The translations under genes and the position numbers were made by a program. The notes under the pieces were generated by a model, which did not search any database, had not been told where the DNA came from, and saw only the letters and a program-made list of their open reading frames with translations. Shown in pieces: positions 17,231-39,500 of a stretch of 64,000 nt of DNA. This DNA is from a virus. Lineage: Duplodnaviria > Heunggongvirae > Uroviricota > Caudoviricetes. The stretch covers positions 6,193-70,192 of IMG/VR virus record IMGVR_UViG_3300046507_000526. One strand, written 5' to 3'. Positions within the stretch are counted from its first letter, which is position 1, and each line of letters starts with the position of its first letter.

Positions 17231-17235
17231 AGTTA

Positions 17236-17242: not shown

Positions 17243-17257
17243 CAGGCGAATCTAGTT

Positions 17258-17578: not shown

Positions 17579-17580
17579 AA

Positions 17581-18363
17581 TTACTTCTTAAGTTGTTTGC
17601 TTGAATAATACGCACCAGCTCCAGCAAGAGCGGTTCCCAGGATAGATTTACCCAGGCCTTTTGCGAATCTCCCAGGCTTGGCTTTAATAAAGCTTTTAAT
17701 TTCGCCAAGGGAGTTTTTTGCATAAGCATCAGAACCCTTCATATACTTGTTAGATACTGAGCCTTTATTCGTAAATACCGACTTTTCAAGGGTATCGTAT
17801 ATTTTCTTCTTTTGCAATTTTTTGGCAAAAGGTGGAGTGAAAGGGTCTCCCTTCATATCCTTGAAAATCTTTTTAACTTCTGGATTACGTACTTTTTTAA
17901 ACTCATCAGATTTCCACGTAGGTGCATTGACATGAACTACTCCTTTAGAACTTTTAGTTCCGGGAATCATATCTTTGAACCTACTCATGGCATCGTGTAT
18001 TTTGAAAGTGCCTTCGTGAATTCTTTGGGCCTGATTTGCGTACGTATGAGCTTGATGTTTAGACTTTGTCATAAACACATGCTCTTTTGACTTCAACGCA
18101 TCTTCACCATGAACTTCTTCTGCGACGTCAATAATACCTTTAGAAGCTCGTGGTTTAAGCCCTTCTTTGAGAATCTTCTTTTTATGTTCTACTGCAGTTC
18201 CGTGATAAAGAGTTTCACGCCCAGTAAGATGGCCACGATCATATTGATCCTTGGCCATGCCGACGCCTGCTACGACTGCAGCACCACCAGCTATCGTCTT
18301 ATTGGTTTTGTTCTCATCTTTACCCCGGGAAGACTCTGCGACTTTCTCAAGGTATTTGTTCAT
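17581..18363 (-). CDS. Tagged ADP-ribosyltransferase-fold protein (Tpt1/PARP-like HY clade)
   Basis: MNKYLEKVA; LYHGT...ILKEGLKP, VFMT...AHTYA; hydrophobic segments at both ends. Confidence 0.6.
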   Translation of the reverse strand: MNKYLEKVAESSRGKDENKTNKTIAGGAAVVAGVGMAKDQYDRGHLTGRETLYHGTAVEHKKKILKEGLKPRASKGIIDVAEEVHGEDALKSKEHVFMTKSKHQAHTYANQAQRIHEGTFKIHDAMSRFKDMIPGTKSSKGVVHVNAPTWKSDEFKKVRNPEVKKIFKDMKGDPFTPPFAKKLQKKKIYDTLEKSVFTNKGSVSNKYMKGSDAYAKNSLGEIKSFIKAKPGRFAKGLGKSILGTALAGAGAYYSSKQLKK

Positions 18364-18366
18364 TTT

Positions 18367-18915
18367 TTAAACCAGTGACTTAGGATTCATCGCACCGTTT
18401 TCACGATAACGACCTTGAAGATCCGTTAGGCTTTTGATAGTCATAAGATCAATACCATCGCCAAGAACAGCGTTAGTAAGGACAGATTGTAGCAGGTTCG
18501 GGTCGACAGCGACCATAGGTGCAAATCGATAAATAGTATCTGCGTACTTCAGGACTTTCTTGTTATCATGTTCACGAAGAACGTGGGAATTAGCAATAGC
18601 TTGGTGCAATGCTTTTAGGAAACGCTGATAACGGAATTGATCTACTACCGTGCGGTATCCACCGATAAGAGCATTGACTGCCATATTTGACACGAATCCT
18701 GCAGACGACTTACCAGCTTCTGTAGCCATACCTTTCAGATAGTCACCAGTAATATCTTGCTGATGAGGTCCAGCTGCTTCTTTTTGTAGCTGTTCGACTT
18801 CTTGTGCTTCTTTTTCAATCATCACATGAGCGATAAACCCGGCAACGAATTGGTCGGCAAGTTCTTCATTCCCGGCAAATTTCTCAAGACCGAGTTCTTT
18901 AATTTTTTCTAGCAT
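18367..18915 (-). CDS. Head protein with K-x-A motifs
   Basis: LEKFAG, IEKEAQ, LQKEAA. Confidence 0.55.
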   Translation of the reverse strand: MLEKIKELGLEKFAGNEELADQFVAGFIAHVMIEKEAQEVEQLQKEAAGPHQQDITGDYLKGMATEAGKSSAGFVSNMAVNALIGGYRTVVDQFRYQRFLKALHQAIANSHVLREHDNKKVLKYADTIYRFAPMVAVDPNLLQSVLTNAVLGDGIDLMTIKSLTDLQGRYRENGAMNPKSLV

Positions 18916-18942
18916 TTTAAATTATTCCTTTGAGTTTCTTAA

Positions 18943-20046
18943 TTAATCACGTTGAAGAGCTGTCCACGCGTCATTGCTTCTTCCCGTAGTTGAATCCGTA
19001 CCTGGGTCATACAGGGCAGCGTCAATAGCAGGGCCAGTAGCAAGTCCGATAGCACCCTTAAGTACTGAACCGGAAGTTTTACCGACAGCCTTCACAATAG
19101 CCTTGGGTTTACCGACTCCCCCGCTCATAAGGTTATTGACGTTTGATTTTACGCTATTAGAAGCTGCTCTGCCTACTGCTGCAACACCTTTAAAAGGCAT
19201 AGCCGCAGCAGCTCCTACTGCCCTGCCTGCGACATAGCCAGGATTACCAAGATTCTTGGCAAATTGTCCTGACTTCTTACTGATATTTTTCATCGCATCT
19301 GAGAAGTTATTCTGATTAATTCCCTGTGCGGTAGCAGCGGCTTGTTTCTGAAGTTCTGAACGCTGACGCTGTTCACGAACTAGTTCCCGGGCTTGCTTAT
19401 ACAAATCTGCAAATCCTTTAACTTCGCTTAGCTGAGCTTCTTTAAAAAGACCTACACTTGCGATATCACGATACTTTTGTACGGAGCCTGAAACTAGAAT
19501 AGAGAGTTCTTTGAACTCCTGTTCCGTTGTAACACAGGCCAGTTTATCCATCCATTTCTCATCACTGTTGATTGCCTTAGCTGTTTTCACAAGCCTCTCA
19601 GCGACGTTCATGCTTTCAATCTGGATACGTTCAAGTGCCTCTTTATTAGCAGCTGCAGATTTTATGAAGTAAGCCAGCTTTTCGCCGTGCTCAAGTTCAC
19701 GATTTTCATAAGCAGAAGCTTGTTTTTCCATTGCGTCTTTTTGTTCAACGCTAATAGCTGCAGCAGATTTTTCTTGGAAGTTATCAGGCACTGTAGCTGC
19801 GGTCATGACTTCCGCGTATTTAGCAAGCGGAAATTCGATAGTGCGATCTTCTTTACTCAGTTGTAGAACTTTAAGGTATGCGATATTGTTCGTTGATTCC
19901 ACAGCACGCTTAACCTGTTCACTATTCAATTCGTAGGCGGCAGCTTGCTTTGCAAGACCCGCGCTAAGGGGAACGTTGTTGTTCAGGAAGTCTTCGACTG
20001 CCTTTACTGAGATATCTCTAATTTCTTCTGGGCTGATATTAGCCAT
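18943..20046 (-). CDS. Head/internal protein with K-x-A motifs and C-terminal Gly/Ala-rich segments
   Basis: LAKQAA, QEKSAA, MEKQAS, FIKSAA, LFKEAQ, LQKQAA; promoter 20072..20078. Confidence 0.6.
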   Translation of the reverse strand: MANISPEEIRDISVKAVEDFLNNNVPLSAGLAKQAAAYELNSEQVKRAVESTNNIAYLKVLQLSKEDRTIEFPLAKYAEVMTAATVPDNFQEKSAAAISVEQKDAMEKQASAYENRELEHGEKLAYFIKSAAANKEALERIQIESMNVAERLVKTAKAINSDEKWMDKLACVTTEQEFKELSILVSGSVQKYRDIASVGLFKEAQLSEVKGFADLYKQARELVREQRQRSELQKQAAATAQGINQNNFSDAMKNISKKSGQFAKNLGNPGYVAGRAVGAAAAMPFKGVAAVGRAASNSVKSNVNNLMSGGVGKPKAIVKAVGKTSGSVLKGAIGLATGPAIDAALYDPGTDSTTGRSNDAWTALQRD

Positions 20047-20194
20047 TGTGTCCTCGTTTTGACGATGTTCCTATTTTAGCATTGAGCGCTATAAAGGGCT
20101 TGCTTTTGGGGTGACGAATCGATTTTTGACCAGTCCTCATACGAAGTTGGCCTTGTTTCTTTTTAGCCGCGATTTTCTCTAGATATTTATTCAT
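20039..20194 (-). CDS. 51-aa tagged highly basic peptide (not in ORF track)
   Basis: MNKYLEKIAAKKKQGQLRMRTGQKSIRHPKSKPFIALNAKIGTSSKRGHNG; stop overlaps the ATG of the next gene. Confidence 0.8.
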   Translation of the reverse strand: MNKYLEKIAAKKKQGQLRMRTGQKSIRHPKSKPFIALNAKIGTSSKRGHNG

Positions 20195-21003: not shown

Positions 21004-22965
21004 TTACTCTTTAACGCTTAATTGTTTTCCAGAAGATTCAGTATCAATAACGTCAGCAGTAGCCGAGTATTCTTTCAGCTTCAGGTAATTATCACCAAGA
21101 AGTCGATACACTGTTTTGAGACCTGCCAGGAATGCGTAGACTTGATCTGCGTCATTGGCTTCAGCAAGACGACCGATATGAACACGAGCCATAAACAATG
21201 TACGTCCGAGTTTATCGATAGCTTCCTCGATGTCGGGAAGATATTCGTTAATCAGCTCGAACATGTCTGGGGCTTGAAGAAGTTCAGAAATAATCGTCGC
21301 CTCTGTAACCTGAGCATCACCCGTAGCAAGAGCACCTTGAACATTAGGGATAAATTGACCGTTAGGTTTATAAGCCCCATTCATGGTAACTTCGTCAGGA
21401 TCAATACCGGTTTGATCTTCTTCCCCGTATTGCGGCATATTACCGTCATCCTGCGCATTCGTGAAGCCAGCTTTCTTAGTCATGTAGATTTTTACGAACT
21501 TCACTTCCTTAGCCTGTTTCACAAAGCTTGTCGCTACTTCTGGATCAATGCCTTCACCTACAACAAGGCGTTTCATAACATCTGATTCTACTCCAGCGGT
21601 TTTACCGTTAATGGCAAACTCTACGCCATCATATCCCAGGTTCATTTCCTGACCGAGCCACTGAATATCATGAAGTTTACGCTTATGCGAAGCAGAGTTT
21701 ACATTACGCTCAAGATCCCCTGTCAGATTCTTACCAAGCTTTAGAACGATGGAATTATAAGGGAGATAGATTTCCTTGCTACGACCACTGCCACATACTG
21801 CAGGACCTGGCTTAGCATTACGATATCCGTAAAGAACCATCTCATATCCATACCCCATTTCTGAAGAAGAGCCTTTTACTTCAACGCCTAGGCTGCTGAG
21901 AACAACTTGATCCACAGATACTGGACCTAGAAACTCTCCTGAATTAAGCACGATTACAATTCTATCACCATTCTCCACATCTTTCAACATGATAGGAGGA
22001 TTGTATTCAAACATCGTTTTGAGAACTTCTTTACGATCAAGAGTTTCCCCGACGGAAACAAAGCTGTCAGATAGAGCGTAGTCCCCTGTTGTGAAAATAG
22101 CCATTGAAGTCTTAGCGGCATCGCCAAGATCATTGGTTACACGTTTTGGGCTAGAACCCAAAGTATACATCTTAGGAATGTAAGCCTCACGAGACGTACC
22201 GTTAGACAGCATAATTTCAAAATCTCTATCTCCATCAAGATTTGAAATATTACGGAAAGTACCTGCTGTATCGAAATTATCAATAGCAACAGCAACCCGG
22301 GAAGTAGGTTGTTCGCCTTCAATGTGGTAACCGTCGTTCAGGATTGAGGAGATCTGATCATTGGTCATCGAAGGGTTTGCGGCAGTTACAACCGAGATCG
22401 GCGAATAATTAGTAACTGCTGCCATACTTTCAGGACGGCTTTTTAGAACATCAAAAATGGCCTTTAGTCCGTACATTTCATCAAGAGAATCGTACACCGA
22501 TTTTTCGGCTGCGATCTTCTCCATTGTTGCCTGTTTGATATAGTCCGGCAGACTAGCCATGAATTCAGTCAGGCGACTAGAACTAGCATAGACATGCTTG
22601 CCAGTACGGGGCGGGTTAATCATATCCGCTACGCTTGGGTTACCAACCACAGTTTTAGGAATATCTGTAGGTTTACCTTGACCGAGCTGGCTCGAAGTAA
22701 CAACAAGGGCTACAGTTTTTTTCGTAAGCGGGAAGAATTTCTTCTCGTTATCAAAAAAGATAGAGTCAATAGGGTACACGTTATCATTCTTCGATACTAC
22801 GGGGACGAAGAAGATTTCAGTTCCGACGCGTAATACGAAAACACCGACCTGAATGCCGGTATCGTCTTGGAGTTCTTCAGAAACATCCTTAAACGTGATA
22901 ATGTAATTCCCTAGCTCAGGAACAGTTTGAAGCAGTTTTGCTAGAGCAATGTCGGAGAAATCCAT
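21004..22965 (-). CDS. Large head-associated protein
   Basis: 653 aa; YIKQAT, MEKIAA, FVKQAK, MTKKAG; promoter 22993..22999. Confidence 0.55.
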   Translation of the reverse strand: MDFSDIALAKLLQTVPELGNYIITFKDVSEELQDDTGIQVGVFVLRVGTEIFFVPVVSKNDNVYPIDSIFFDNEKKFFPLTKKTVALVVTSSQLGQGKPTDIPKTVVGNPSVADMINPPRTGKHVYASSSRLTEFMASLPDYIKQATMEKIAAEKSVYDSLDEMYGLKAIFDVLKSRPESMAAVTNYSPISVVTAANPSMTNDQISSILNDGYHIEGEQPTSRVAVAIDNFDTAGTFRNISNLDGDRDFEIMLSNGTSREAYIPKMYTLGSSPKRVTNDLGDAAKTSMAIFTTGDYALSDSFVSVGETLDRKEVLKTMFEYNPPIMLKDVENGDRIVIVLNSGEFLGPVSVDQVVLSSLGVEVKGSSSEMGYGYEMVLYGYRNAKPGPAVCGSGRSKEIYLPYNSIVLKLGKNLTGDLERNVNSASHKRKLHDIQWLGQEMNLGYDGVEFAINGKTAGVESDVMKRLVVGEGIDPEVATSFVKQAKEVKFVKIYMTKKAGFTNAQDDGNMPQYGEEDQTGIDPDEVTMNGAYKPNGQFIPNVQGALATGDAQVTEATIISELLQAPDMFELINEYLPDIEEAIDKLGRTLFMARVHIGRLAEANDADQVYAFLAGLKTVYRLLGDNYLKLKEYSATADVIDTESSGKQLSVKE

Positions 22966-23031: not shown

Positions 23032-23811
23032 TTAACATCCGGGTGGATGCTGATTATCACCAGAAGCAACGGTAATCGTCCCCGTGCCAGTACTAGACCC
23101 ATTTGCAACAGCCACACCCCCGCCTGAGCTATTTGCCTGATTGTAGGCAGCTCCGTAGTAAATACTTGCTACGTACGCCGAAGTAGAACTTCCGTTTCCT
23201 CGATCCGTAGCCGCTAATCCAATATAAGCCTGGAAAGTTGCTTCCATTCTGCTGTTATACGTGAATTGACCTATTGTGAATTTACTACCCGATTGTTTCA
23301 CTGCTTTATATTTGGATTCTAAAACTACGAGCCCTGCAAGCAGTTGATTTGATACAGTAGATGAGCCATTAAATTTAGCAGAAAGGCTCTCTCCTGGATT
23401 TACACAAAGTATAGACACAAGATCAGGTCTTGCAGTCTCGATCAGGCACTTACCTGTTTTCTGAGAAGCGCCTTTCACCTGGTTCCAACCCATAGTCTGT
23501 AGAAGACCCCAAGCTCGAAGGCCCTGATCTACGTTGACAGATTGCTGATTAATACCTCTTCCAACTATATTCTGTACAGCGCTAGAATTGTAATAATCCC
23601 TGGCACCTGACGAGTTTATAACGCTCAAAGCAGGGCCTTGAGCATTTACATTGAAATGGCTCTCGTATTGAATCTGAGCCATAACCAACTTTACAATATC
23701 GTTCTCTTTGCCAAGAGTATTGGGAAAATACTGATCAAGTAACTGTCTGATCGTTGTAGCACAAATCTGTTTAATAGAGGTATCTACGACGGTTCCTGTA
23801 ACAGCACCCAT
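23032..23811 (-). CDS. Virion-associated lytic transglycosylase (SLT-like)
   Basis: AQIQYESHFN catalytic Glu motif and AWGLLQTMG; ATG overlaps the beta'-C stop (TAATG). Confidence 0.65.
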   Translation of the reverse strand: MGAVTGTVVDTSIKQICATTIRQLLDQYFPNTLGKENDIVKLVMAQIQYESHFNVNAQGPALSVINSSGARDYYNSSAVQNIVGRGINQQSVNVDQGLRAWGLLQTMGWNQVKGASQKTGKCLIETARPDLVSILCVNPGESLSAKFNGSSTVSNQLLAGLVVLESKYKAVKQSGSKFTIGQFTYNSRMEATFQAYIGLAATDRGNGSSTSAYVASIYYGAAYNQANSSGGGVAVANGSSTGTGTITVASGDNQHPPGC

Positions 23812-25637
23812 TAGTACTTACCTCCCTCTCCTTCACCGAATTCATTGCCGATAATATACGAAGTAATGGGATCAGTACTGTGAATATGTGATTCAGATCC
23901 TACAGCTGCACTTTCACGTAAGGTGTTTTTAAGACCTGAGAATGAAAGCTTAGATACCCAGTTATCATCGAGTAATTTAGCTGTCTTAAGACCAGGCACA
24001 ATCGGAACTACTCGAAGTCCAGTCGGAGCCACAGGCACCTTGGTTACCCCCTTTTCACGCAATTCCTGAATATGATTACCGTCAAGAAGTGTTCCCGGCG
24101 TAAGCTCATAAACGCCTTTTGCTAAAAGTTTACCTTCAGCCTGGTCAAGAGGAACTTCTCCATGAGTGTCAGCAAAATACTTGCGCACTGTATTCACATC
24201 AATCTTTTGGCCAGGTAGGAAACCAGTTTCAGCAGGATCAATTACTTCAACGTGCTTGACCAGGTTCTTGGCAATCATTTCGAAATGGCGAGGATCAAGG
24301 CCTCCGCCGTATATTCCACGAAGCTCATGGGCCATGTACAGCCGACCTGCACCCAGACCTTTCAGTCCAACCAGTTTTCGAGGATTTACAACACCGGTAG
24401 AAAGGGCATCGCCTTTGAGAATCTTTTCGCCAACAGCAACTTTAAGATTCTGATTGTTAGGCACGAAGTGTGCCTGCTCGTTTACGAACACATTATGGTC
24501 ACCAAGAGGGGTTTGCTTAATTGCGGAAACCACGCCATTGATATTCGAGATCGTTGCTTCGTCTTTGAAGTTTTCCGAAGGATTACGCAGAAGATTCGAG
24601 GCTTGATCGTAAGAGTTACCCTTACGAGCACCAACAGAAGCTTTGTGCTTCGTAGAAAGCATGGACTGCGTCAAAACTTCAGATACAGATTGAGCAGCGA
24701 TAACACCAACGTTTTCACCAATCTCAGCAGGTTTACCATTTCCCATTAATCCATAGCATTTCTTGCAAACACCATCATGTGCTTCGCATGTCAATACACT
24801 ACGCACCTTCATGTCTTTATGGCCTGAATTTACAAGTTCTTTGTAATAGTGCTCATCGATTAAGGTGTTCGTACCAACTTCGTAGCGGCCAATAGCTCCC
24901 TTTTTGTCGGCGATTGGCAAAGTTATACCGTTTGTCGTCCCGCAATCGTCAATAGTAATTACTTCATGGAATACGGTAGGGGAAAGTTCCTTAAACAGAG
25001 CGCCTGGAAGAGCTGTAGACAACTGAGATAGAACGGTAGATCCACGACCCATATACGACATTGCGATAACCTCTGCAGGAGTCATACCTTGAGCAAAAGA
25101 ATGCTTAATAACGAAAGGAACAAGTTCCCCTTTAAGGTTGATCGACATAAGAGGGGTCGATGTACCAGTAGCAAGCTGCGTGGGATTACCACGCGCACCA
25201 GTACGAGCCATCTTTGCAGCAGTCGAGCCTTTGCTCAAAAGATAGTCAAGGTTTTGTTTTTCGATCTTACCGTTGTATTCGCCAGTTAGATTTCCCAGCG
25301 CATCATTCTCTTCTTTCTTTGAAAATTTCTTTGCAAAGATTTGATCAACCTTTGTTTGAAATTCATCGATGATAGCCTGACGTTCGTCAGATTCATTTAT
25401 GTAATCGCTGAGCGGAGTAGTAGCACCAATCTCGGTTGCCTTGTTGAAGAACTTCTTACCGAGATCATTAATCGTTTCATGGCTATTAGGCCCGCCGTGC
25501 TTAAGAAGTACATTGACCAAGTCGCTGATAGCGCCTTTATCAAGAGGCCTGTACAGATCGAAGTTGTCCTTCGCTTCTTGAGTGGGAAGTTCTGATTTGA
25601 GCCTAATGGCTCCAGGCGTGGTATATTTTTCAGTCAT
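23811..25637 (-). CDS. rpoC: RNA polymerase beta' subunit, C-terminal fragment
   Basis: ARTGARGN, VITIDDCGT, RSVLTC, CKKCYG, GENVGVIAAQSVSEVLTQSMLSTKH (trigger loop), PRHFEMI. Confidence 0.9.
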   Translation of the reverse strand: MTEKYTTPGAIRLKSELPTQEAKDNFDLYRPLDKGAISDLVNVLLKHGGPNSHETINDLGKKFFNKATEIGATTPLSDYINESDERQAIIDEFQTKVDQIFAKKFSKKEENDALGNLTGEYNGKIEKQNLDYLLSKGSTAAKMARTGARGNPTQLATGTSTPLMSINLKGELVPFVIKHSFAQGMTPAEVIAMSYMGRGSTVLSQLSTALPGALFKELSPTVFHEVITIDDCGTTNGITLPIADKKGAIGRYEVGTNTLIDEHYYKELVNSGHKDMKVRSVLTCEAHDGVCKKCYGLMGNGKPAEIGENVGVIAAQSVSEVLTQSMLSTKHKASVGARKGNSYDQASNLLRNPSENFKDEATISNINGVVSAIKQTPLGDHNVFVNEQAHFVPNNQNLKVAVGEKILKGDALSTGVVNPRKLVGLKGLGAGRLYMAHELRGIYGGGLDPRHFEMIAKNLVKHVEVIDPAETGFLPGQKIDVNTVRKYFADTHGEVPLDQAEGKLLAKGVYELTPGTLLDGNHIQELREKGVTKVPVAPTGLRVVPIVPGLKTAKLLDDNWVSKLSFSGLKNTLRESAAVGSESHIHSTDPITSYIIGNEFGEGEGGKY

Positions 25638-26415: not shown

Positions 26416-26755
26416 CCTCGACAAGAGAGTAGTGTAGATCCCAGACTGGACTGAGCGGAGTGAGATAGATTCTCTCCGCCAGTCCGTATTTTTTAATCAA
26501 ATCAGAAATATGTTGGTATAAAGACTTAAAGATCCCCTTACCTTTATTTTTACTCTTTGCAAATGTCTTTGCAGTTCCTCCAAATTCACCAACAGAGTTT
26601 AGGATAAGGCAATTATCGTGAATCGTTATATCTATAGGCATTCCTGAAATCCAGGCGGTTCCAGGCAATATTTTTTCATCTTTGAATTCGATGGTCGTGT
26701 TTGCTGATTCAGCAAGGGCCTTTAGGAATTCGTTTTCTTTAACATGTGTATACAT
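26354..26755 (-). CDS. Possible GNAT-like protein
   Basis: KNKGKGIFKSLYQHI resembles the acetyl-CoA-binding motif A; weak. Confidence 0.35.
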   Translation of the reverse strand: MYTHVKENEFLKALAESANTTIEFKDEKILPGTAWISGMPIDITIHDNCLILNSVGEFGGTAKTFAKSKNKGKGIFKSLYQHISDLIKKYGLAERIYLTPLSPVWDLHYSLVEVNEALKGHYFYLDTSRPSEP

Positions 26756-27910
26756 ATGGCAATTAAAAATAAGGCTGTTGAACTTCCAAAGGCGGCGCTT
26801 CCAAAAGCTACTACTAACGTAAATGCTTCATACTGGACCCAACTTCCTAAAACCAGCGATGAATACGGAAAAATTCTCGATAAAGTAATTGATGAACTAA
26901 ATAAGTCGCATAAGAACTCAGGATATAGCATTTATGTTCGTAAATCTAACAGATTCAAGGAACTCTCGTCTGCTAAGTATACAGAGAAAATGTTCCTGTT
27001 TTTGGAAGCTAACTATTGGTCATACACTACAAAGGCCGGTGCTGAAGCTATCCAGTACATCATAGATCATTTCCAGCTTAACGATCAAAACGCAAGGCTT
27101 AGTCCGGACCGCAAGCACGTAGAATTTATGTACGACGGCGTACTTGTTGAAATTGGAGATCCGAGTGAACGACTTAGGAAAGCCAATAGTAACCCTGAGT
27201 CTCAGATCACCAATGTTATATACGGATACGGAGGAGAGCTGTATAAGGTGATCAAGATCCTGCTTAACAAGTTTGGATTTGATTTTACAGACGAAGCCAA
27301 GTTTCAGTTCAAGCTTATGGAAGGAGAGTCCGTATATAAAACGTACGAAGTTGCTACGGGTCTAGATAGTTTATATAAACTCCTGGGCACGAGTTCCAGA
27401 AACGCACCGTATATGTTTAATTTTACAAAGCGGTCTGAATTCGCAGACTGGGCAATGGGTTCACGCTACATCGGTAAATCAACATTTGATATCGATGAGC
27501 ACAATAACTATGTAGGGCCAGTGGATTATTACGGGTCATCTCTGTACAGGGAACTGGTTCATATTATTCGTGAGAAATACGTTTCTGACGCAGACAAGGC
27601 TACGCCTGAAGTTTTGCCAGAAACGATCCGTAAGTATCAGAATAAATTCTGGGAAGCCAGAAGCGTTTACGAATATAAAAAGATGCTGAAAGATATGGCA
27701 GTGTATCAGGAACGTAAGATCATTCGGAATAAATTTACTGATACTATGATCATGGAAGTAACTGGTACAAATAACAAAGAAGAAATAGATTCCTTCAAGT
27801 TGAGATTTGAAAATCATATCTCCAACAGCGAAGATTTCTCGTTCTTCTTGCTGAGTTCTTCCGAAGATACTATCCGTGAGAAAATAGCAGCATTCAGAGC
27901 TTCGAACTAA
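26756..27910 (+). CDS. Possible divergent nucleotidyltransferase-family protein
   Basis: C-terminal half (SEFADWAMGSRY; RNKFTDTMIMEVTG) recalls phage Pol-beta-like NTases, but no GD-x-D motif is seen. Confidence 0.35.
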   Translation: MAIKNKAVELPKAALPKATTNVNASYWTQLPKTSDEYGKILDKVIDELNKSHKNSGYSIYVRKSNRFKELSSAKYTEKMFLFLEANYWSYTTKAGAEAIQYIIDHFQLNDQNARLSPDRKHVEFMYDGVLVEIGDPSERLRKANSNPESQITNVIYGYGGELYKVIKILLNKFGFDFTDEAKFQFKLMEGESVYKTYEVATGLDSLYKLLGTSSRNAPYMFNFTKRSEFADWAMGSRYIGKSTFDIDEHNNYVGPVDYYGSSLYRELVHIIREKYVSDADKATPEVLPETIRKYQNKFWEARSVYEYKKMLKDMAVYQERKIIRNKFTDTMIMEVTGTNNKEEIDSFKLRFENHISNSEDFSFFLLSSSEDTIREKIAAFRASN

Positions 27911-27914: not shown

Positions 27915-27921
27915 TAAAATA
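27915..27921 (+). promoter_or_regulatory. TAAAATA late-type promoter on the plus strand
   Basis: TTTTAAAATAG overlapping the first arm of the terminator hairpin 27924..27957; only plus-strand intergenic copy noticed. Confidence 0.55.
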
Positions 27922-27982
27922 GTCTAGACGTGATATAATGCGTCTAGGCTTTTTTTAGCTTTTCAAAGGCGTCCGACAATAA

Positions 27983-28450
27983 ATGCTACAACCTAACGAT
28001 GAATTCCTTTTTACCCGTCAACGTCACGAAGCTGATGTAATGGGCCTGCATTACGATCTGAGACTCGTTCATGGAGACAAAGCGTATTCTTTTGCAACTC
28101 TCAAGGATATGCCTAAACCTGGTGAAATCATTGCCGTCTATGAGCAGCCTGTACATGATCGTGCATACGCACTTAGCAAGAAGGTTGTCATTCCTAAAGG
28201 TCAGTACGGCGCAGGGACTACGTATCTGGATTGGGTTCGTAAAGCAGTTGTAGCCCCGCATAGCACAGAAACTAGTCTGGTTATATTCACGAAGGATGGT
28301 GAGAAGTTTCTTCTGAAGAAATCTCCGACCAAAGAAAATGAAAAGTCCTGGATTTTTAGAAACATCACAGGCATGGGGAAGAGTCAGAATCCTTATTTGA
28401 AGAAAGTAGAGGAAATGCAGAAAAAAGCGATGCAGGCATTTTATGAATAA
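27983..28450 (+). CDS. LigD-type 3'-phosphoesterase (PE) domain protein
   Basis: QRHEA..LHYDLRL..SFA..K..P..AV..H..Y..IPKGQYGAG, the signature of LigD PE domains. Confidence 0.85.
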   Translation: MLQPNDEFLFTRQRHEADVMGLHYDLRLVHGDKAYSFATLKDMPKPGEIIAVYEQPVHDRAYALSKKVVIPKGQYGAGTTYLDWVRKAVVAPHSTETSLVIFTKDGEKFLLKKSPTKENEKSWIFRNITGMGKSQNPYLKKVEEMQKKAMQAFYE

Positions 28451-29903
28451 GTACCTTGAAAAAATTGCCAAGAAGCAGCCTAAGGAAGATCTTCAACCGC
28501 ATCAAAACGATGCCTTGGATCATCTCGACAAAGAGAAAGGCGTTGTCCTTCATCACAGCCTTGGCAGTGGCAAGACAAAGACGTTCCTTAAGGCTGTACA
28601 ACGCTATCAGGAAGAGAACCCGAAGAAACGGGCTCTTGTTATTGCCCCAGCGAGCCTCGTTACTAACGTCGATAAAGAACTTCAGAAACATCACATCACG
28701 ATTGATAAAAATCGACTGGATGTAATGTCTTATGAAAAGGCTGTAAATGAAGCCCATCACCTTCGAAAGAATCACTACGCAATCGCAGTTGCGGATGAAG
28801 CCCACCGTCTCCGCAATACAAATACCAAACGTGTAAAAGAGCTTCGTGACATTATCAGCGGGGCTGACCATAGACTTCTCGCTACTGCTACTGGTAATTA
28901 CAATAAGCTTTCTGATATTTCGGCACTGGTTAACATAGCGGCTAACGATAATGTTCTTCCCGAAGATTCCAAGAAAATGGAAGACAAGTACACGAAGGAC
29001 GAAACGATTAAGCCTAGCTTCAAAAATAGATTGCTCGGTGCTAAACCTGAAGTAGTAAAAACCCTTGACCGTAAAAAAGAACTTCGAGACATTCTTCAAC
29101 AATATGTGAGCTTTTACGATAGCAAGGATGATCCGAAGGCTAGAGACCATTTCCCCGAAAAGCATGAGAAATTTGTAGATGTTGAGATGTCTCCAGAGCA
29201 GCTCCGTTACTACAAATATGCTGAAGGTAAAATTCCATTCTTGCTTAGAATGAAGATCCGTCACAATATGCCGCTCGATAAAAAAGAGAAGTCGAATCTC
29301 AATGCTTTCTCAACCGGTGTTAGACAGGTTTCTAACGGTCACAGGCATCTCGTTGCTGACGGTAAGGCCGAGTACTCACCAAAGATACAGAAGGCCGTGG
29401 CGAGCCTCCAGGATGGCTTAAAACTGGATAAGAACTTCAAGGCTCTAGTGTATTCCAATTACTTGGATGCGGGCCTTAAAGATTACTCCCGCAAACTTAA
29501 CGAGCTTAAGATTCCACACGCTTTATACGATGGATCATTGTCTCGCAAAGAGAAAGACGATCTTGTAAAAGCATACAACTCTGGGAAGACAAAGGTTCTT
29601 CTTATTTCTTCAGCGGGTTCAGAAGGTCTGGATAGTAAAGGCACTAAGAGAGTGCAGGTTCTTGAGCCTCACTTTAATAAAGCCAAGGTTGACCAGGTAG
29701 TTGGACGTGCCGTACGTTTTGGAAGTCATGACCATCTGCCGAAAGAAGAGCGTAAAGTAGAAGTAGAGCATTTCCGTAGCGTGCATCCAAAACCGTTGTG
29801 GGGCAAAGCTCCGTATAGTATCGACAGGTATCTTTCGGAGAATTCGGATACGAAGCAGGATCTGTTTGAAGAAGTCAAAGGACTGATGAAGAAAGATGAT
29901 TAA
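28443..29903 (+). CDS. Tagged SF2 helicase/ATPase (SNF2-related, NPH-I/D6-D11-like)
   Basis: MNKYLEKIA; HSLGSGKT, DEAH, TATG, SSAGSEGLD, QVVGRAVRFGSH. Confidence 0.85.
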   Translation: MNKYLEKIAKKQPKEDLQPHQNDALDHLDKEKGVVLHHSLGSGKTKTFLKAVQRYQEENPKKRALVIAPASLVTNVDKELQKHHITIDKNRLDVMSYEKAVNEAHHLRKNHYAIAVADEAHRLRNTNTKRVKELRDIISGADHRLLATATGNYNKLSDISALVNIAANDNVLPEDSKKMEDKYTKDETIKPSFKNRLLGAKPEVVKTLDRKKELRDILQQYVSFYDSKDDPKARDHFPEKHEKFVDVEMSPEQLRYYKYAEGKIPFLLRMKIRHNMPLDKKEKSNLNAFSTGVRQVSNGHRHLVADGKAEYSPKIQKAVASLQDGLKLDKNFKALVYSNYLDAGLKDYSRKLNELKIPHALYDGSLSRKEKDDLVKAYNSGKTKVLLISSAGSEGLDSKGTKRVQVLEPHFNKAKVDQVVGRAVRFGSHDHLPKEERKVEVEHFRSVHPKPLWGKAPYSIDRYLSENSDTKQDLFEEVKGLMKKDD

Positions 29904-31272
29904 TAAATACCTTGAAAAGATCGCAGTACAGCTTAAAGAACCTGCCAGCCCAGAAGGGTTAGGATTTGACCTGTCCAAAGGTGATGAAAAAGAGCTATAT
30001 AAATGGCTTACAGCTGTTACTCTTTTTTCAAGGCCTATTCAACGCTCGGTAGCTACGATGGCTGCAAAGCATATGGCTGATAAAGGTTTCCATTCTCCAG
30101 AAGCTGTAGAATCTGCAGGATGGGAGACTCTTAGAGATAATCTCGTACAAGGTCATTATGCTCGGTTCGATGAGTCAACTGCTACGACTATGCTCGCCCA
30201 GGCTAAGCATTTGAAAGAGAAGTATGGAACTCTCGGCAACATGATCGCCAGTCGAACCCCTGAAGAAATTCGTGCCGAGATTCAGACATTCAGAGGTATC
30301 GGTCCCCTCGGCAGTCAGTTATTTCTCAATGGCGTAGTCCCTCATCTCGATGTATACAAAAATAAATACCTTCAAAAAGCGGCTTTCATCGAAGACTACG
30401 TTAGACATAAATATGTAGAGAAAGACTGGACTCAGCTCGAACACCCCGTTGCATCAAAGAAATGGGATGGCGCTCACTTTGTCGCTGATATTATGCCGGA
30501 TGGTAAAATCCGTTTCTTTTCCCGTAGACCAAGTGTAAGAGGTGGCTATCCGGAACGTACAGATCAGTTACCTCATATTACTTCAAAGCTAATTCCCGAG
30601 TATGCAGGTAATAGATTTGCCGTTGAACTTGTCCATACTGGAAAGGAAAAAACAGAGAAGGAATCTCACCCTACTGTTTCAGGTATCCTCAATTCAAAAA
30701 CGGAACGTTCAATTGCTACTCAAGAAGAGAAAGGCCCAGTTAGGGCAGTTCTTATTGACGTTAAAAAACCGGAACTGCCGACATATAAAGATAAGATTGA
30801 GTATCTCCAAGGCTTTGAAAAAGACTTTGGAAATAGCAATGTATTGTTCGCACCTCATCTTGAGCATGGCGTTGAGAACATCAATAAGTATCTTGACAAG
30901 ATTAAATCACTAGGTGGAGAAGGCCTGATCGTTGCGGATTATGAAAGTCCTGAAAATGAGTCTGTACGATATAAGGTCAAGAACTTCAACACTTATAATC
31001 TCAAGGTTGTTGGATTCCAGCAGGAAATCGACATACATGGCAATCCGAAAGATAGCATGGGTGCACTATTGTTAGAAGATGCTACTGGAAGAATGGTTGG
31101 AAAGGTTGGAACTGGGTTTGACCGTGCTACCAGAATAGATGCATGGAAGAATCCAGAGAAATGGAGAAACAGATTAATTCAGATAAGAGCGTATCCACCT
31201 AGCGTACCTGGAGGCCAAGTAAGATTTCCTATCTATAATGGCTATGCAGATGGTGAAATAGACACGGTTTAA
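29896..31272 (+). CDS. Tagged fusion: HhH/endonuclease III-like domain plus ATP-dependent DNA ligase
   Basis: MINKYLEKIA; FRGIGP HhH motif; second tag NKYLQKAA at aa 156; KKWDG, EGLIV, YKVK, GKVGTGF, RFP ligase motifs. Confidence 0.85.
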   Translation: MINKYLEKIAVQLKEPASPEGLGFDLSKGDEKELYKWLTAVTLFSRPIQRSVATMAAKHMADKGFHSPEAVESAGWETLRDNLVQGHYARFDESTATTMLAQAKHLKEKYGTLGNMIASRTPEEIRAEIQTFRGIGPLGSQLFLNGVVPHLDVYKNKYLQKAAFIEDYVRHKYVEKDWTQLEHPVASKKWDGAHFVADIMPDGKIRFFSRRPSVRGGYPERTDQLPHITSKLIPEYAGNRFAVELVHTGKEKTEKESHPTVSGILNSKTERSIATQEEKGPVRAVLIDVKKPELPTYKDKIEYLQGFEKDFGNSNVLFAPHLEHGVENINKYLDKIKSLGGEGLIVADYESPENESVRYKVKNFNTYNLKVVGFQQEIDIHGNPKDSMGALLLEDATGRMVGKVGTGFDRATRIDAWKNPEKWRNRLIQIRAYPPSVPGGQVRFPIYNGYADGEIDTV

Positions 31273-31369: not shown

Positions 31370-32149
31370 ATGTCAACCTCTATTGCCAAGCAACAGATCA
31401 TGAAGGCTCGTCAGCCGAAGGTGGTTAATGTGGAAAGTCTGATTTATGCTACTAACTCTGATGCAGTTTACCAGCTCATCAAGAAGTATGCAGGTGGACT
31501 TTCCAGATCTGACCTATGCACCGCACTTGTTCACAGCAAGTCGGACCTTAAGGAACACAGCGTGGATAACGCTTTGCTGCACCTTAAGAACAACGGCTTT
31601 ATTCGCGGGGAAGTAGGCAAAGATCGTGATGGTACGACCGTCTACTTCATCAACGAAGATAAGGAGTACAGGCCTCGCTCCAACAAAGTTGCACGGAAAA
31701 TAGCACCGAACGATAAGAAAGCTCAAAAGGCTGTTCGGCGTATGACTCGTGTGAAGGCAGTAGACCTCACCGAGGAACAGCAAGGTAACCTGCCTTTGGA
31801 GAATGCGAATGGCTCATCTGAAGCCCCTTCCGCACAGGCCAAGAAGAAGCCTGTTCAATCTCAAGATGCGAACCTTAAGGTCACGAAAAAGGCTGAGGGG
31901 AAATCTGGAGGTTTTGAATTCATTCAAGGGATGGCAGCGTTGGATCCGAGCAGCCCGCACTTTGGAGAGACGGCGCTTGACCTTGCTCAAAAGACGGGTC
32001 AGGTAGTAGAAATCCCGGAACCTACGGGCCCGGTAAAGCCTATCGCTTCGATGTTCTTTGAACTAGATGGAGGTCAATCGGTGGTTCTGTCCCCCGCCAG
32101 AGCTTACCAGTTGTATCTCGAACTCCACGCTGCATTTGGTAAGAAATAA
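31370..32149 (+). CDS. Winged-helix DNA-binding protein (probable)
   Basis: VYQLIKK..GLSRSDL..SVDNALLHLKNNGFI plus wing; basic linker. Confidence 0.55.
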   Translation: MSTSIAKQQIMKARQPKVVNVESLIYATNSDAVYQLIKKYAGGLSRSDLCTALVHSKSDLKEHSVDNALLHLKNNGFIRGEVGKDRDGTTVYFINEDKEYRPRSNKVARKIAPNDKKAQKAVRRMTRVKAVDLTEEQQGNLPLENANGSSEAPSAQAKKKPVQSQDANLKVTKKAEGKSGGFEFIQGMAALDPSSPHFGETALDLAQKTGQVVEIPEPTGPVKPIASMFFELDGGQSVVLSPARAYQLYLELHAAFGKK

Positions 32150-32246
32150 GTTGGCTCTTGAACGGCGGAGACGTATCATATTCTCTGCGACCGGCTCTGC
32201 CGTTCGAGGAGGTTGAGGAAGGGGTTCCTCCCCTCTTCCTCTTTTT

Positions 32247-33413
32247 TTACGCTTCGATTTTGATCGGCGTATTATCGTTGATTTCTCCACGCTCAAGAGC
32301 AGATAGTACTTCAGCTTCTGATTTGAATACACGAGGAGCTTGGGTCATGTCAGGCTCAGTCAAGGCCATAGATCCGATAACAGCTTCGTGTCCAGGAGCC
32401 ACCATTGATGCTCCCTGTCCTTTACGATAATCGTAAATGTGTTGTTGCGGCAATAGCTTCTTTTTAGCCTCTTCAACTGCCTCTGGCGTCATCGGTACAT
32501 GCAGTGTTAAAGCATCTCCGTCAAAGTCGCCTGCGTACATAGGAAGATGCAACGGATTAATACCTAGCGTCTTACCTTCAATAGGGACGGGGAAGTGAGC
32601 CGTGATGTTGGTACGCATAAGCGTTGGAGCACGGTTAAGGATAACCGGAATTTGCTTGATAACCTTGTTAAAGCTATTCGTTGCAGATACGTCTCTATTC
32701 GCTACAGCCTTACGAGCGGCCATCATATCGTATCCGTTACGGACAAGATCCCGAATGATATGGAACTCGTACATCGTCCAAAGCATGTCCTTCGGAGCAG
32801 CTACCTCATTGAAACCTAGATTAGGCTCAGCGTAAATCGTTGCACGTCCAGAGAAATCCTGTTTCTTCTTCAAAAGCTTATTGTGAAAAAAGCCGCCTTT
32901 AGGACCAGTATCTCCTGCAATTTGCTGGATGTAGCCCTTCAGATCTTTCCCACGTGCGCCGCCAGAAACTGCATCCCCAAGACCGAACACTGCTTTAAGA
33001 CCGTTATATGAATCCTTGCGCTCATTAACAAGCATGTCATGAGGCAGAAATTCAAGGTTGTCTTTAAGCCCATTGTTAATCAGCATATGGTCTCGGTATA
33101 GAGTATTCACATCGGCGAACTCGATACGGTTCCCTCCCATAGGAATACTGGGCCTTACTAACGGAGGAGTAACAGGCACATTGTGTAAGATATACGCATT
33201 TTCAGGACGTAGATCCATTTTCTGAAGCCCAGCAAGATATTTGATCTTCTTGATAATAGCATCACGCTTAGAAGGAGATTTCGTATCTTTGATTTCAGCT
33301 TTCAAAGCTTTAATCTGTGTATCTACATCAATTGTAGAAAGCATTTTATGAATTGCATCTCCTGAAACGGAGAGGCTATCTGTATCTACGCTGAGTTTTG
33401 TATTGTTATCCAT
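32247..33413 (-). CDS. rpoC: RNA polymerase beta' subunit, catalytic middle fragment
   Basis: VPVTPPLVRP, LLKKKQDFSGRATI, VILNRAPTL, YAGDFDGDALTLHVP (catalytic DxDGD). Confidence 0.92.
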   Translation of the reverse strand: MDNNTKLSVDTDSLSVSGDAIHKMLSTIDVDTQIKALKAEIKDTKSPSKRDAIIKKIKYLAGLQKMDLRPENAYILHNVPVTPPLVRPSIPMGGNRIEFADVNTLYRDHMLINNGLKDNLEFLPHDMLVNERKDSYNGLKAVFGLGDAVSGGARGKDLKGYIQQIAGDTGPKGGFFHNKLLKKKQDFSGRATIYAEPNLGFNEVAAPKDMLWTMYEFHIIRDLVRNGYDMMAARKAVANRDVSATNSFNKVIKQIPVILNRAPTLMRTNITAHFPVPIEGKTLGINPLHLPMYAGDFDGDALTLHVPMTPEAVEEAKKKLLPQQHIYDYRKGQGASMVAPGHEAVIGSMALTEPDMTQAPRVFKSEAEVLSALERGEINDNTPIKIEA

Positions 33414-36528: not shown

Positions 36529-39500
36529 TTACTCTCCTGCGTCTGCTACATTGGCGCTATTAACTTTGATAGTTTTGATATGTTTGCCATCTGCTGTGCT
36601 GTGCAAAGCAAAAGATCCCTCCCCCATATCTTTAACTCCGATAGTTCCTTGTACAATACCTTCGAACTCGCTAGACTTAAGACCTAGAAGGCTCTTGATA
36701 GGACGTTCGAATACAGGATTCGGAAGAGGCTCTGCAAGTTCGTAGTGAGTCCACTTGTTACCGCGTAGTCCACCCGTAGTAGCAGGATCATACAGTCCAC
36801 CCTTTTCAGGCTCAAGATTCTTTGCACTAAGAAGCTCCGGAGATTCAATCTTACCATTAGACATTTCGATAATATCAGTATCAGTTAAAGGAGAAGCAGT
36901 AACAACGCCATTCCTGATACTTGTCTTAATTCCTGAACCTTTCAGATAATCGAAAAACTTCTCTGTAGCAAAAGTCATGCGTGGCTTAGGAAGAGCCTGG
37001 CCCATCTTGAACTTAGCCCAATAGTCAGAGTTGTCCTGAGACTTAAGGGTAGAAATTTCCTTAAGATTCTTTCTTGCATTGGAACCTAGGAGACCAAGCA
37101 TTTCCATGTACCCAACTGACTTAGAACCTTCCTCACCACCTTTTTGAGGTTGAAGGACGTTATCATATGCGCCTACATTTCTAGCAGACCAGTTCTGGTC
37201 AGTCGTCTTATATAGTTTCAAGAAATACTGAGGTCCTGTAAGGATTCTCCCCAGATCTTTACCACTCTTAGGATCGACCATCATCTCAGTATCGCTGATT
37301 CCCAGATTATCCAACTCTTTCTTCAAATCAGAAACGTTGCTTCCTTTGCTGAAATTATGAAGAAAGTAAGGCTTACCCGTGGTTTTTGCAATTTTACCTG
37401 CTGCAGTTTCCATCAGCTGGCCAAGGTTAATACGAGAAGTAACGGATGCCGGGTTAAGAAGAATATCGACAGCTTCGCCATTTTCTTTCTTATAAGGCAT
37501 TTCATGATCCTCAAGAATCTTGGAGACGATACCTTTGTTACCATGCAGGCCGGTCAGTTTATCGCCAATTTCCAAAGGCTTAACTGAACGAACCAGGATA
37601 CGGATATTCTTACCTTCTGTGTGAGCATCCACGACAGTACCGTTTTCTTCATGGGTCCAAAGTTCCGCTGCAAGACGGAAAGGCGTAACCAGCGATTTAT
37701 GAAGCCGTGCAAGTAGCTTATCTTCAGCAGAAGGTTCACGTTTTTCCAGAACTGCATAAACGGGATCTCCATGCTTAAGGATAGCCCCGACTTTTGCAAA
37801 GCCTTGATCATCAAGATTTTCAAGTTGATCCTTGGTAAACTTTCCAGGATACCAACGATTGATCAAAGCCTTATTCATTGTCGTAATAGGCTGCACTGCA
37901 TAGTCAATCTTATACGCATGATGACTGCTCAGGCTTTCTGCGCATGAACGGCTGATCACCAAACCATCTTCGTGGTTGTAGCCCTTGTACGGCATGTACG
38001 CAACTTCGAGATTTTTCCCAAGCGCCAGTTCACCATCAACGGTGTAGTTGTTATCAGCTACAGGCTGATTCACAGAAACTTTATCGCCAACCTTAACCAA
38101 TGGCTTTTCATCATCCAGGAATCCTTTCATATTAAAAGGAAGGTTTTTAACAAGGTCTATCTTGTGAGTCTTACCATCATCATCCTTGATATGAATCTGG
38201 GTTTTTGTAATATTAGTTACTGTGCCTGCAGAAGGAGAAACTGTGCTTACAACTTGACCGATTGCTTTAACGAAGCTTGTACCGGCACCGTTAACAGTCT
38301 GGACCAGAGGCTTCTCACGTTCAACAAGAGATAGAGCTTGGGGAATAGCTTTGCCTGCCATCGTAAGACGGCCAGGATGATTACTATTAAGGAACGGTAC
38401 CAGATTAGTTGTAATCGTGTACATGTCTGTAGTATCCCCAAGCCAGTAGTCTACGCTTGAGAACGGAACTTCTTTAAGATCTCCCTTAACCTGAGCCTGT
38501 ACTATCTTTTTGCCTTCTTGATGAGGAAAGCCAATAGTATGGGTCATCATTTCCTGAACTGACAGGTAATGTTGTTTCCCTTGTTTATCAATAACACGTG
38601 CGTACAAATTCCCGCTATCGTCACGACGAGCTGAGATAGTGAAACGCTGGTCGATACCTGCATGGCCAGATTCTGGCGTACGGCTAGGATCGATAATACC
38701 AAGATGTGACGGATCGATATCTCGTGCAGACATAGGTACGCCACGGTCAGAAGCAATACCGCCTTCGCCCGCGCCAAGAACTGTTACCTTACCCACGCTT
38801 TCCAAAGATTCAATCGGATTAGTTTCCGAAGGTGTCGAAACAAGATTACTTTCAATGATGTAGTTAGACATAACCTTGTTATATGGCTTGCTTACTACAA
38901 CATCTCGAATTGAAGGATTTTTTGTCTTATCCAAATTAGCAAGCAACTTCCTACGAATACCGGGAAGAAGCTCATGCTTGTTAAATCTGGTAGTAATAAA
39001 ATCGGGCAGATTCTGAACACGTTTAAATTGCAGAGAATCTCGATTGTCTTCCGGCCTTTCGCCTGCGTGAACCTGGACCAGATTACGCATAGCTCTGAGA
39101 ATTGAGTCAGAGTTAACTGAGGGGACAGATTTACCAAGAGTAACAAGAGTCGTTTGCGGAGAAAGAGACGAAGCTTCCATGGATTCACGAAGCTGCATCA
39201 TTTTCTCTTCTGTGCTTGCAGTAGGCTTTTGCTTTCCAGTGGATACTAGCTTACCGTAGAGATCATTGATGATCTTTTGTTCTTTCCCAGCAGAAGCCGC
39301 AAGATTAGCTTCCCAAACCTGAGCAGGAATGTACTGAGAAACTTCTTTAGGTCCAATGCCAAAAACCTTGGATACTAAAGGTCCAAGGGGGATTGTTGAA
39401 GACGAGCTTGCAGGATGAACTGAAAACTGGAATGTCTGCGGATCTAGCGTGATAGAAAAGCTACGTCCAGAACCGGTGTTGAAGTGAGACTCCAATTCCC

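Follow-up and report, generated by a model that had tools for sequence, protein, structure and literature searches.

We analysed a stretch of 64,000 nucleotides (hereafter the window) from a tailed phage of the class Caudoviricetes, which covers positions 6,193 to 70,192 of the IMG/VR record IMGVR_UViG_3300046507_000526, a record of 134 kb that is 73% complete. The gene studied here, at 28443-29903 on the plus strand, is open throughout in translation and encodes a helicase-like ATPase of 486 amino acids (P0001), which its translation, Pfam matches, AlphaFold2 (AF2) model and phylogenetic trees place among SNF2-superfamily ATPases of the class of the poxvirus proteins D6 and D11. Its ATPase motifs are intact and comprise motif I (GSGKT, residues 41-45; 28563-28577, +), which is preceded by a His, motif II (DEAH, residues 118-121; 28794-28805, +) and motif VI (QVVGRAVR, residues 418-425). 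The protein contains the two RecA-like lobes and motifs I, II and VI by which the SNF2 superfamily is recognised, and both Pfam domains score over their cut-offs, SNF2-rel_dom at 3e-19 with 69.6 bits (cut-off 24.9) and Helicase_C at 4e-15 with 56.5 bits (cut-off 23.5). The AF2 model, calculated from 42 homologs, has a mean predicted local distance difference test score (pLDDT) of 88.6 and a predicted template modelling score (pTM) of 0.80, and it shows the overall Snf2 fold with the Snf2-specific helical protrusions. The model superposed on Snf2h, INO80, SRCAP, Mot1, ISW1 and CSB with Z values of 22-27 over 380-420 residues and a root-mean-square deviation of 4-5 Å, and a Foldseek search against the PDB gave E values of about 1e-21. 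Based on these features, we predict with high confidence that the helicase is an active SNF2-superfamily translocase and a member of a very large phage family.

An earlier note on this DNA had described motifs V and VI of the protein as resembling those of the vaccinia virion ATPase NPH-I (D11) rather than those of classical SNF2 proteins, and the motif string that it quoted is found exactly in the translation. The classical motif VI, Q-A-x-D-R-x-H-R-I-G-Q, is absent from this helicase, which has QVVGRAVRFGSH followed by an insert of 8-9 residues, and the extended motif VI G-R-A-x-R-x-x-S-H-x-x-x-P-x-x-R-x-V-x-V is found. When residues 370-486 were searched alone against the PDB, vaccinia NPH-I was the top match (6rfl_Y, residues 437-497; E=1.8e-5) and no classical SNF2 protein appeared at E<10. 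With the whole helicase as the query, the best match was the Sulfolobus SNF2/Rad54 core (SsoRad54) at 5e-13 over the full length, and NPH-I aligned to residues 383-444 only (29589-29774, +), the region that holds motif V, motif VI and the D6/D11-type extension and that is conserved across the family and in relatives of the type found in nucleocytoplasmic large DNA viruses (NCLDV). A profile of 42 family sequences recovered NPH-I at E=1e-14 (57.9 bits) in a single 71-residue stretch as the third match overall, and solved SNF2 proteins reached at most 68 bits, with Rad54 cores among the best full-length matches. The alignment with NPH-I continues beyond motif VI through the insert SH..LP..ER.V.V..F, whereas classical SNF2 proteins are without this insert and pass from RIGQ at once into a strand. 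The extension, with the pattern Q-x-x-G-R-x-x-R-[FY]-x-S-H-x-x-L-P-x-x-E-R-x-[VM]-x-[VI]-E-[HY]-[FY] and the consensus SHxHLPxxERxVxVEH[FY] in the helicase, is kept in nearly all of the 120 closest homologs. The HxxGSGKT form of motif I is also common to the phage family and the NCLDV-type proteins, while in five of seven ordinary SNF2 proteins, those in which it could be located, the motif reads [DEA]-x-G-[LT]-G-K-T and no His stands before it. These comparisons confirm that the resemblance to NPH-I, as read from sequence, is genuine and beyond chance.

The window encodes a second helicase (46363-48165, +), which carries the classical SNF2 motif QQQDRIHRIGQ, as the earlier note had stated. 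Its best PADLOC likeness is to ZorD, at sub-family level only, and it is kept in Vibrio phage D69 (36% identity), a phage without the D6/D11-type helicase.

The phage helicase family comprises 1,915 clusters at 50% identity in a profile search (E<=1e-30). The best 150 matches listed by the exhaustive profile search were family members, and more distant classes were ranked by a search restricted to proteins longer than 1010 amino acids. In this restricted search, fused family members came first and were followed by a score gap from 269 to 162 bits, below which stood proteins of 1040-2130 amino acids with 93-162 bits, all of which contain Q-[IV]-I-G-R-A-V-R-x-x-S-H-x-x-L-P-x-x-x-R-N-V. The two of these that were checked for gene context are giant-virus-like: P0199 is found on a contig of 170 kb that also encodes a large PolB, a Ulp1-type peptidase, RNase III, ERCC4 and asparagine synthase, and P0170 adjoins a D5/C962R-type primase-helicase and PIF1. 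The sole PDB match of P0199 was NPH-I with 56.7 bits, which we equate with the score of the phage profile. A Foldseek search against predicted viral structures returned a 598-amino-acid member of the phage family first, equal in length to the PA-SR01 homolog, followed by NCLDV proteins annotated as early transcription factor 70 kDa subunit, DEAD/SNF2-like helicase and D6R-type helicases at 20-26% identity, among them a Gaeavirus protein (26% identity, 4e-31) with Pithovirus and Marseillevirus bins after it. Ordinary phage SNF2 proteins ranked below the NCLDV matches at 16-20% identity, and variola NPH-I stood at rank 48. Since the NCLDV bins are metagenomic, contamination with phage contigs is possible. 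Megablast of the helicase island against 50,697 phage records gave no match.

Maximum-likelihood trees were calculated for each lobe with 24 family members, 30 NCLDV-type proteins and seven ordinary SNF2 proteins, namely the 46363 helicase, its D69 homolog, the proteins of Bacillus SP-10, an Oceanotoga phage, Gordonia Diabla and Clostridium P21, and E. coli RapA. In the lobe 2 tree (195 columns), the family (97/88) and an NPH-I-like clade (99/97) are sisters (98/89), four giant-virus sequences of the intermediate class are basal to both, and the ordinary SNF2 proteins stand apart at 100/100. Because lobe 2 holds the extension, the analysis was repeated on lobe 1 alone, leaving out six rows, two of them outgroups, that offered no clean motif I/II anchor. 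The lobe 1 tree, in which the extension plays no part, shows the same split with a Shimodaira-Hasegawa-like approximate likelihood ratio test (SH-aLRT) value of 98 on a long branch, with the NCLDV clade branching off next to the family. In these trees, for which the NCLDV-type sequences were picked by similarity, the outgroup was small (seven) and poxvirus D6 and D11 were not included, the helicase family appears as sister or adjacent to the NCLDV clade rather than as an ortholog of NPH-I. The separation of the protein from ordinary SNF2 helicases was seen in both lobes. We conclude with high confidence that, as judged by these comparisons, the NCLDV D6/D11 class has its closest known relative in the phage family.

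The helicase gene stands second in a plus-strand unit that is bracketed by terminator-like hairpins, one upstream at 27921-27950 (+; a 12-bp stem, then a T-run) and one closing the unit at 32215-32241 (+; a 10-bp stem with six GC pairs, then a T-run). The first gene (27983-28450, +) encodes a LigD-type 3'-phosphoesterase of 155 amino acids (Pfam LigD_N at 5e-8, TIGR02777, H-x6-H-Y-D-L-R-L), whose stop overlaps the helicase start (ATGAATAA). The third (29896-31272, +) encodes an ATP-dependent DNA ligase of 458 amino acids with an N-terminal tag (phrog_114 at 6e-25, with sub-threshold NCBIfam ligase matches), whose start overlaps the helicase stop (ATGATTAA), and both junctions are 8-nucleotide ATGAnTAA overlaps. 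No Ku was found in the 134 kb record, and Pfam detected no primase-polymerase domain among the neighbour genes. The last gene of the unit, the open reading frame (ORF) ORF259 (31370-32149, +), has no Pfam or NCBIfam match and a marginal match to phrog_2030 (E 6.9e-4), and it is kept in 3 of 80 related loci. Upstream of the unit lies ORF388 (26744-27910, +; 388 amino acids), which has a terminator-like hairpin of its own and no Pfam, NCBIfam or PHROGs match, and which is kept in 2 of 57 related loci. Both ORFs were dropped from the mechanism considered below, since no family could be assigned to them and they are poorly conserved.

Around the unit lie minus-strand genes for a multisubunit RNA polymerase (RNAP) as well as homologs of the virion proteins gp218-gp222 of Salmonella phage Arash, which places the helicase inside a block of RNAP and structural genes, a setting that favours the packaging proposal of the earlier note. 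The island is flanked by the genes for the β' C-terminal subunit (23811-25637, -; Pfam RNA_pol_Rpb1_5 at 7.6e-15, 51% identity to Arash gp216) and the β' N-terminal subunit (32247-33413, -; Pfam Rpb1 domains 1 and 2). The β subunit gene lies at 36529-39906 (-; Pfam Rpb2_6 at 1e-59, 55% identity to Arash and 52% to Vibrio phage D69) and the Arash gp218 homolog at 21004-22965 (-; blastp 31% identity, 4e-79). The helicase gene is placed between the β' C-terminal and β' N-terminal genes in the window and in the related loci L003 and L004, and it directly abuts an RNAP ORF in Arash, L032 (+1 nucleotide), L054 (-145 nucleotides), L056 and L071 (-4 nucleotides). An RNAP gene lies within 10 kb of the helicase in 24 of 57 non-redundant IMG/VR loci, and a phosphoesterase or ligase gene in 19 of the 57. 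All of the 32 large helicase-bearing contigs encode RNAP β (25 of 25 among those at least 90% complete) and only nine of the 32 encode LigD_N, indicating that RNAP is the constant companion of the helicase while the phosphoesterase and ligase are a lineage-specific addition.

The helicase begins with the tag NKYLEKIA (residues 2-9; 28446-28469, +), which is a low-confidence helix in the model and recurs at other N-termini in the window. The description of the protein as tagged in the earlier note holds, as MNKYLEKIA heads seven ORFs of the window in the form (M)NKYLEK[IVA]A and one further copy is located inside the ligase ORF. The positions are 13019-20194 (-), 28443 (+), 29896 (+) and 30361 (+), and five of the seven otherwise unrelated ORFs lie inside the structural block. 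The tag is N-terminal in 64 of 67 unfused homologs and internal, sometimes twice, at the phosphoesterase/helicase junction of fused homologs. Since it recurs internally in the ligase and at fusion junctions, it behaves as a portable linear motif, such as a docking or protease site, and not strictly as an N-terminal signal. The capsid-targeting peptide of T4 may be like M-x-x-Y-x-E-x-I-A. The sharing of the tag among ORFs of the structural block resembles the portable N-terminal capsid-targeting peptide of about 10 residues that is established in T4 (PMC9026906). The member of the family in Pseudanabaena phage PA-SR01 (L002, 5575-7371, +) has a 140-residue N-terminal extension with the tag-like repeats RRNFLKN and RRQFLKN, which also look like twin-arginine signal motifs.

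The ortholog of the helicase in Arash, Gp217 (40% identity over 97% of the length), has the same motif VI extension, and its gene begins at the end of gp216, the β' C-terminal gene, and precedes gp218. When purified Arash virions were analysed with LC-MS/MS, Gp217 was covered to 100% by 38 unique peptides with 1148 spectra (PMC10585845). In the same analysis, β' Gp216 gave 40 peptides and 1210 spectra, Gp218 gave 36 and 1149, and the major capsid protein gave 30 and 1333, while RNAP β was the most detected virion protein with 3516 spectra and two further Arash DNA helicases gave two peptides each (PMC10585845). The virions also hold the sigma-like factor Gp10, two RNA ligases, the phosphoesterase Gp58, NUDIX-type pyrophosphohydrolases and ribonucleotide reductase (PMC10585845, Table 2), a list that points to a rich cargo of enzymes or else to impurity of the preparation. 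With moderate confidence, we regard the helicase as a virion protein that is delivered together with RNAP.

Based on these observations, we tentatively favour over the other readings, without calling it probable, that the helicase is a virion-delivered accessory motor for the phage RNAP that is locally coupled to end-healing and ligation. In the phage of the window, the protein would be produced along with the virion proteins, packed into the capsid and delivered with the DNA and the phage multisubunit RNAP. Driven by ATP, it would then travel on the incoming duplex and assist the polymerase as an accessory factor outside its core, by pushing or releasing RNAP or by clearing its template, in the way that NPH-I, RapA and CSB act for their own polymerases. 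In the window lineage, the motor is also joined, through fusion or gene overlap, to a 3'-phosphoesterase of the LigD type and to a DNA ligase, so that exposed 3' ends with a 3'-phosphate or an RNA tip could be cleaned and sealed on the same DNA. The bacterial LigD phosphoesterase favours 3'-phosphate or RNA-tipped 3' ends on duplex, and as this is the kind of end that a displaced polymerase would leave, the combined model may be attractive. A predicted complex of the β' C-terminal subunit (residues 90-608) with the helicase (residues 16-486), calculated with separate alignments, scored 0.10, 0.39 and 0.00 against a mark of 0.32 and carries no weight for or against a contact between the two proteins.

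Several observations weigh against the proposed role as a packaged helper of RNAP. Arash virions were purified on a sucrose gradient only and yielded 116 proteins, and carry-over into the virion fraction, which the authors bring up themselves (PMC10585845), is possible; furthermore, Gp217 is without the NKYLEKIA tag. NPH-I was not among the 50 best PDB chains in Foldseek and VIA-align comparisons of the model, which chromatin remodellers and CSB lead; the overall fold therefore does not single out NPH-I, and the affinity resides in the sequence signatures and the phylogeny. The NPH-I C-terminal domain (Pfam NPHI_C) gave no match at E<=0.01 in the helicase, in which only about 45 residues remain after the motif VI extension. 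The co-occurrence of helicase and RNAP in 32 of 32 contigs may merely reflect a single clade of RNAP-bearing phages. No copy of the helicase was found anywhere in the genome of phage D69, which shares RNAP β (52% identity) and β' C-terminal (50%) subunits with the window and has the same order of β' C-terminal gene, small ORF and gp218 homolog, and among contigs selected for RNAP the helicase is present in 9 of 18, or 3 of the 6 near-complete ones. Conversely, PA-SR01, whose 137 kb genome is complete, encodes a family member (37% identity) among its structural genes, and RNAP β and β' are not detectable in it. The helicase is thus not an obligatory RNAP subunit. The proposal of the earlier note that this phage may package an early transcription apparatus is carried by the abundance of the Arash ortholog in virions alongside RNAP and weakened by the frequent absence of the helicase where the same RNAP is present and by its one occurrence without RNAP.

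The fusions seen in relatives also count against a role in transcription alone. LigD_N is fused N-terminally to the helicase in one polypeptide in 29 of the 120 closest homologs, the ligase domain is fused to it in P0141, P0158, P0160, P0161 and L048, of which P0141 and L048 are triple fusions of phosphoesterase, helicase and ligase, and further relatives are fused to NUDIX, HD, kinase, pyrophosphatase-like and cell-wall peptidase domains, the multidomain proteins spanning 1000-2600 amino acids. Such partners point to nucleic-acid end chemistry or to polyvalent injected proteins rather than to transcription. The earlier note had set packaging against a repair role, and this opposition does not hold, because the fusions with LigD phosphoesterase and ligase make repair part of the picture. 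In several loci (L005, 6112-7029; P0134, P0156, P0161 and P0167), LAGLIDADG homing endonuclease or intein splicing domains interrupt or separate the phosphoesterase and helicase genes.

The same fusions are among the grounds for the main rival explanation, possible though on balance unlikely, in which helicase, 3'-phosphoesterase and ligase are co-packaged in polyvalent-like fashion as a kit for the care of the injected genome and protect or repair the incoming DNA independently of RNAP. The motor would run along the duplex until it meets an end, a nick or a bound host protein, the phosphoesterase would clear blocked 3' ends and the ligase would seal them, guarding the DNA against host nucleases. 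Beside the phosphoesterase fused to 29 of the 120 closest homologs, the triple proteins (P0141 and L048) and the helicase-ligase fusions, this is favoured by the 8-nucleotide overlap at both junctions of a unit bracketed by terminators, by the tag that helicase and ligase share, by relatives fused to cell-wall peptidase, NUDIX, HD and kinase domains like polyvalent proteins, and by the best PHROG match, which falls in the middle of a polyvalent-type profile of 1881 positions. The presence of the Arash ortholog in virions fits it as well, and P1 DarB, a packaged SNF2-type protein, protects injected DNA (PMC5512222). End repair cannot, however, be the core role of the family, since LigD_N is encoded in only 9 of 32 helicase-bearing genomes and RNAP in all 32. 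The helicase gene repeatedly abuts RNAP ORFs directly across differently arranged genomes, its nearest characterised relatives (NPH-I, the VETF small subunit and ORF4 of yeast virus-like elements) are all transcription factors, and searches detected neither Ku in the 134 kb record nor a LigD polymerase partner among the neighbour genes, all of which weighs against such a kit.

If the signal in Arash virions were carry-over, the helicase might instead be an ordinary intracellular recombination or repair helicase of the Rad54 or UvsW kind, working in replication together with the ligase and the phosphoesterase. In jumbo phages, recombination-dependent replication has been proposed to draw on Snf2 helicases that the phages encode themselves (PMC7824862), the SsoRad54 and Rad54 cores match best over the full length among PDB sequences, and the Arash authors raise carry-over for a preparation with 116 detected proteins (PMC10585845). 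We consider this improbable, because the spectral counts of Gp217 match those of the capsid protein and RNAP β' while the two other Arash helicases gave two peptides each, the gene sits in the structural and RNAP block and not among replication genes, the tag is common to ORFs within the structural block, and the fusions of the family to cell-wall hydrolase domains are typical of ejected proteins. It is highly improbable that the protein is a generic bacterial or defence SNF2 protein similar to DrmD, ZorD or DpdE that was acquired by the phage and resembles NPH-I by chance or convergence. These three are indeed its top NCBIfam/PADLOC matches and its overall fold is generic SNF2, but DrmD scored 60.5 bits against a cut-off of 950, ZorD 25 against 1500 and DpdE 27.5 against 500 (NCBIfam), and the alignments are partial and end at about residue 430, before the extension. 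Moreover, each lobe independently groups the family with NCLDV-type proteins and away from the seven ordinary SNF2 proteins, the signature holds across the 1,915 clusters of the family, and the family profile gives NCLDV-type proteins 93-162 bits versus at most 68 bits for any solved SNF2 protein. The sub-cut-off scores, the trees of both lobes and the conserved signature largely refute a generic or defence identity.

We then compared the proposed accessory motor with known systems. The helicase has in common with NPH-I (D11) and the VETF small subunit (D6) a SNF2-related two-lobe ATPase and the extended motif VI (G-R-A-x-R-x-x-S-H ... P-x-x-R-x-V-x-V), and with the NCLDV-type relatives the motif I H-x-x-G-S-G-K-T and a sister or adjacent position in both lobe trees. 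In the literature, poxvirus D6 and D11 are packaged with the viral multisubunit RNAP, to which the Arash ortholog in virions would be the phage counterpart. The differences are considerable. The helicase has 486 amino acids in contrast to 631-637 in NPH-I and the VETF small subunit, it has neither the Rap94-binding C-terminal domain of NPH-I nor a Rap94 or VETF large subunit partner, and in the trees the phage proteins form a clade of their own that is not nested among NCLDV sequences. Whereas D6 and D11 are essential in poxviruses, the phage helicase is absent from about half of the related RNAP-bearing phages. Unlike D6 and D11, the phage family is often fused or coupled to LigD phosphoesterase and ligase, a coupling for which we know of no D6/D11 counterpart. 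In poxviruses as in yeast virus-like elements, homologs of D6 and D11 bind the RNAP of the virus or element that encodes them (PMC6211774). D6/D11 have been described as monophyletic within NCLDV, with no phage relatives mentioned (Yutin & Koonin 2012, PMC3493329), and our literature searches, whose coverage did not extend to subscription journals, found no report of a phage relative of D6/D11, NPH-I or VETF.

Among phage systems, Arash Gp217 is likewise encoded beside genes for the β' C-terminal subunit and a gp218-type virion protein, but unlike the window helicase it has no adjoining phosphoesterase or ligase within the ±6 kb examined. The Arash study gives no functional or evolutionary interpretation of Gp217, which is annotated as a DNA helicase (PMC10585845). 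P1 DarB and the polyvalent SWI2/SNF2 modules (PMC5512222) provide a precedent for a head-packaged SNF2-type ATPase delivered with DNA, and relatives of the helicase likewise occur within multidomain proteins. The window helicase differs from DarB in that it stands alone, has no methyltransferase partner, carries the D6/D11-like signature and not the DarB dyad, and has a strong genomic link to RNAP; among the listed fusion relatives, no methyltransferase Pfam domain was found and the partners were phosphoesterase, ligase, NUDIX, HD, kinase and peptidase. In phiKZ-type phages, a superfamily 2 helicase that neighbours RNAP and is related to Rad25 has been predicted to have a RapA-like role (PMC7824862). 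It is likewise encoded beside the β' C-terminal and β genes and has in common with our proposal the idea of a Snf2-type motor that aids a multisubunit RNAP, and no phiKZ-type phage was among the matches listed for the window helicase. The closest solved folds include CSB and Rad26 bound to Pol II (Z 22-24), while E. coli RapA groups with the outgroup in both lobe trees. Finally, bacterial LigD resembles the neighbours of the helicase in its LigD_N-type phosphoesterase (H-x-D-x-R) and ATP-dependent ligase, the latter with weak similarity to ligases of non-homologous end joining. In the window, by contrast, no Ku or LigD polymerase domain was found, a SNF2 motor joins the two enzymes and the scores are far below the LigD family cut-offs.

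A broader reading, which we consider rather unlikely, is that the Arash-type virion transcription machine, consisting of a multisubunit RNAP and a D6/D11-class ATPase, is homologous and not just analogous to the packaged early-transcription apparatus of poxviruses and giant viruses. If this were true, D6/D11, so far a hallmark of NCLDV only, would have a vast sister family in tailed phages and would have been inherited from phages or exchanged with them. In the window lineage, the motor would additionally recruit a 3'-ribonuclease/phosphatase and a ligase, which suggests that RNA 3' ends left on the template by the phage RNAP might be processed and sealed, for example in transcript-primed DNA synthesis or ribo-patch repair. 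Whichever role applies, about two thousand clusters in tailed phages give this giant-virus hallmark a prokaryotic-virus context, and the tie to RNAP together with one virion-abundant cultured member bears on how large DNA viruses built a self-sufficient packaged transcription system. Salmonella phage Arash can be grown and is thus a tractable model for what a D6/D11-type motor does for its polymerase, and the recurrent fusion of the motor with LigD phosphoesterase and ligase is an unexplained architecture that may reveal a new coupling of translocation and end-healing on injected DNA.

The RNAP genes themselves also vary in arrangement among these phages. In many relatives (L053-L057, L071, L087, L088 and G011-G032), RNAP is one giant ORF of approximately 1,900-3,060 amino acids that matches β, β' N-terminal and β' C-terminal subunits, while the phage of the window, Arash and D69 encode these as separate genes, and the phage multisubunit RNAP thus looks like a case of fused-versus-split polymorphism.

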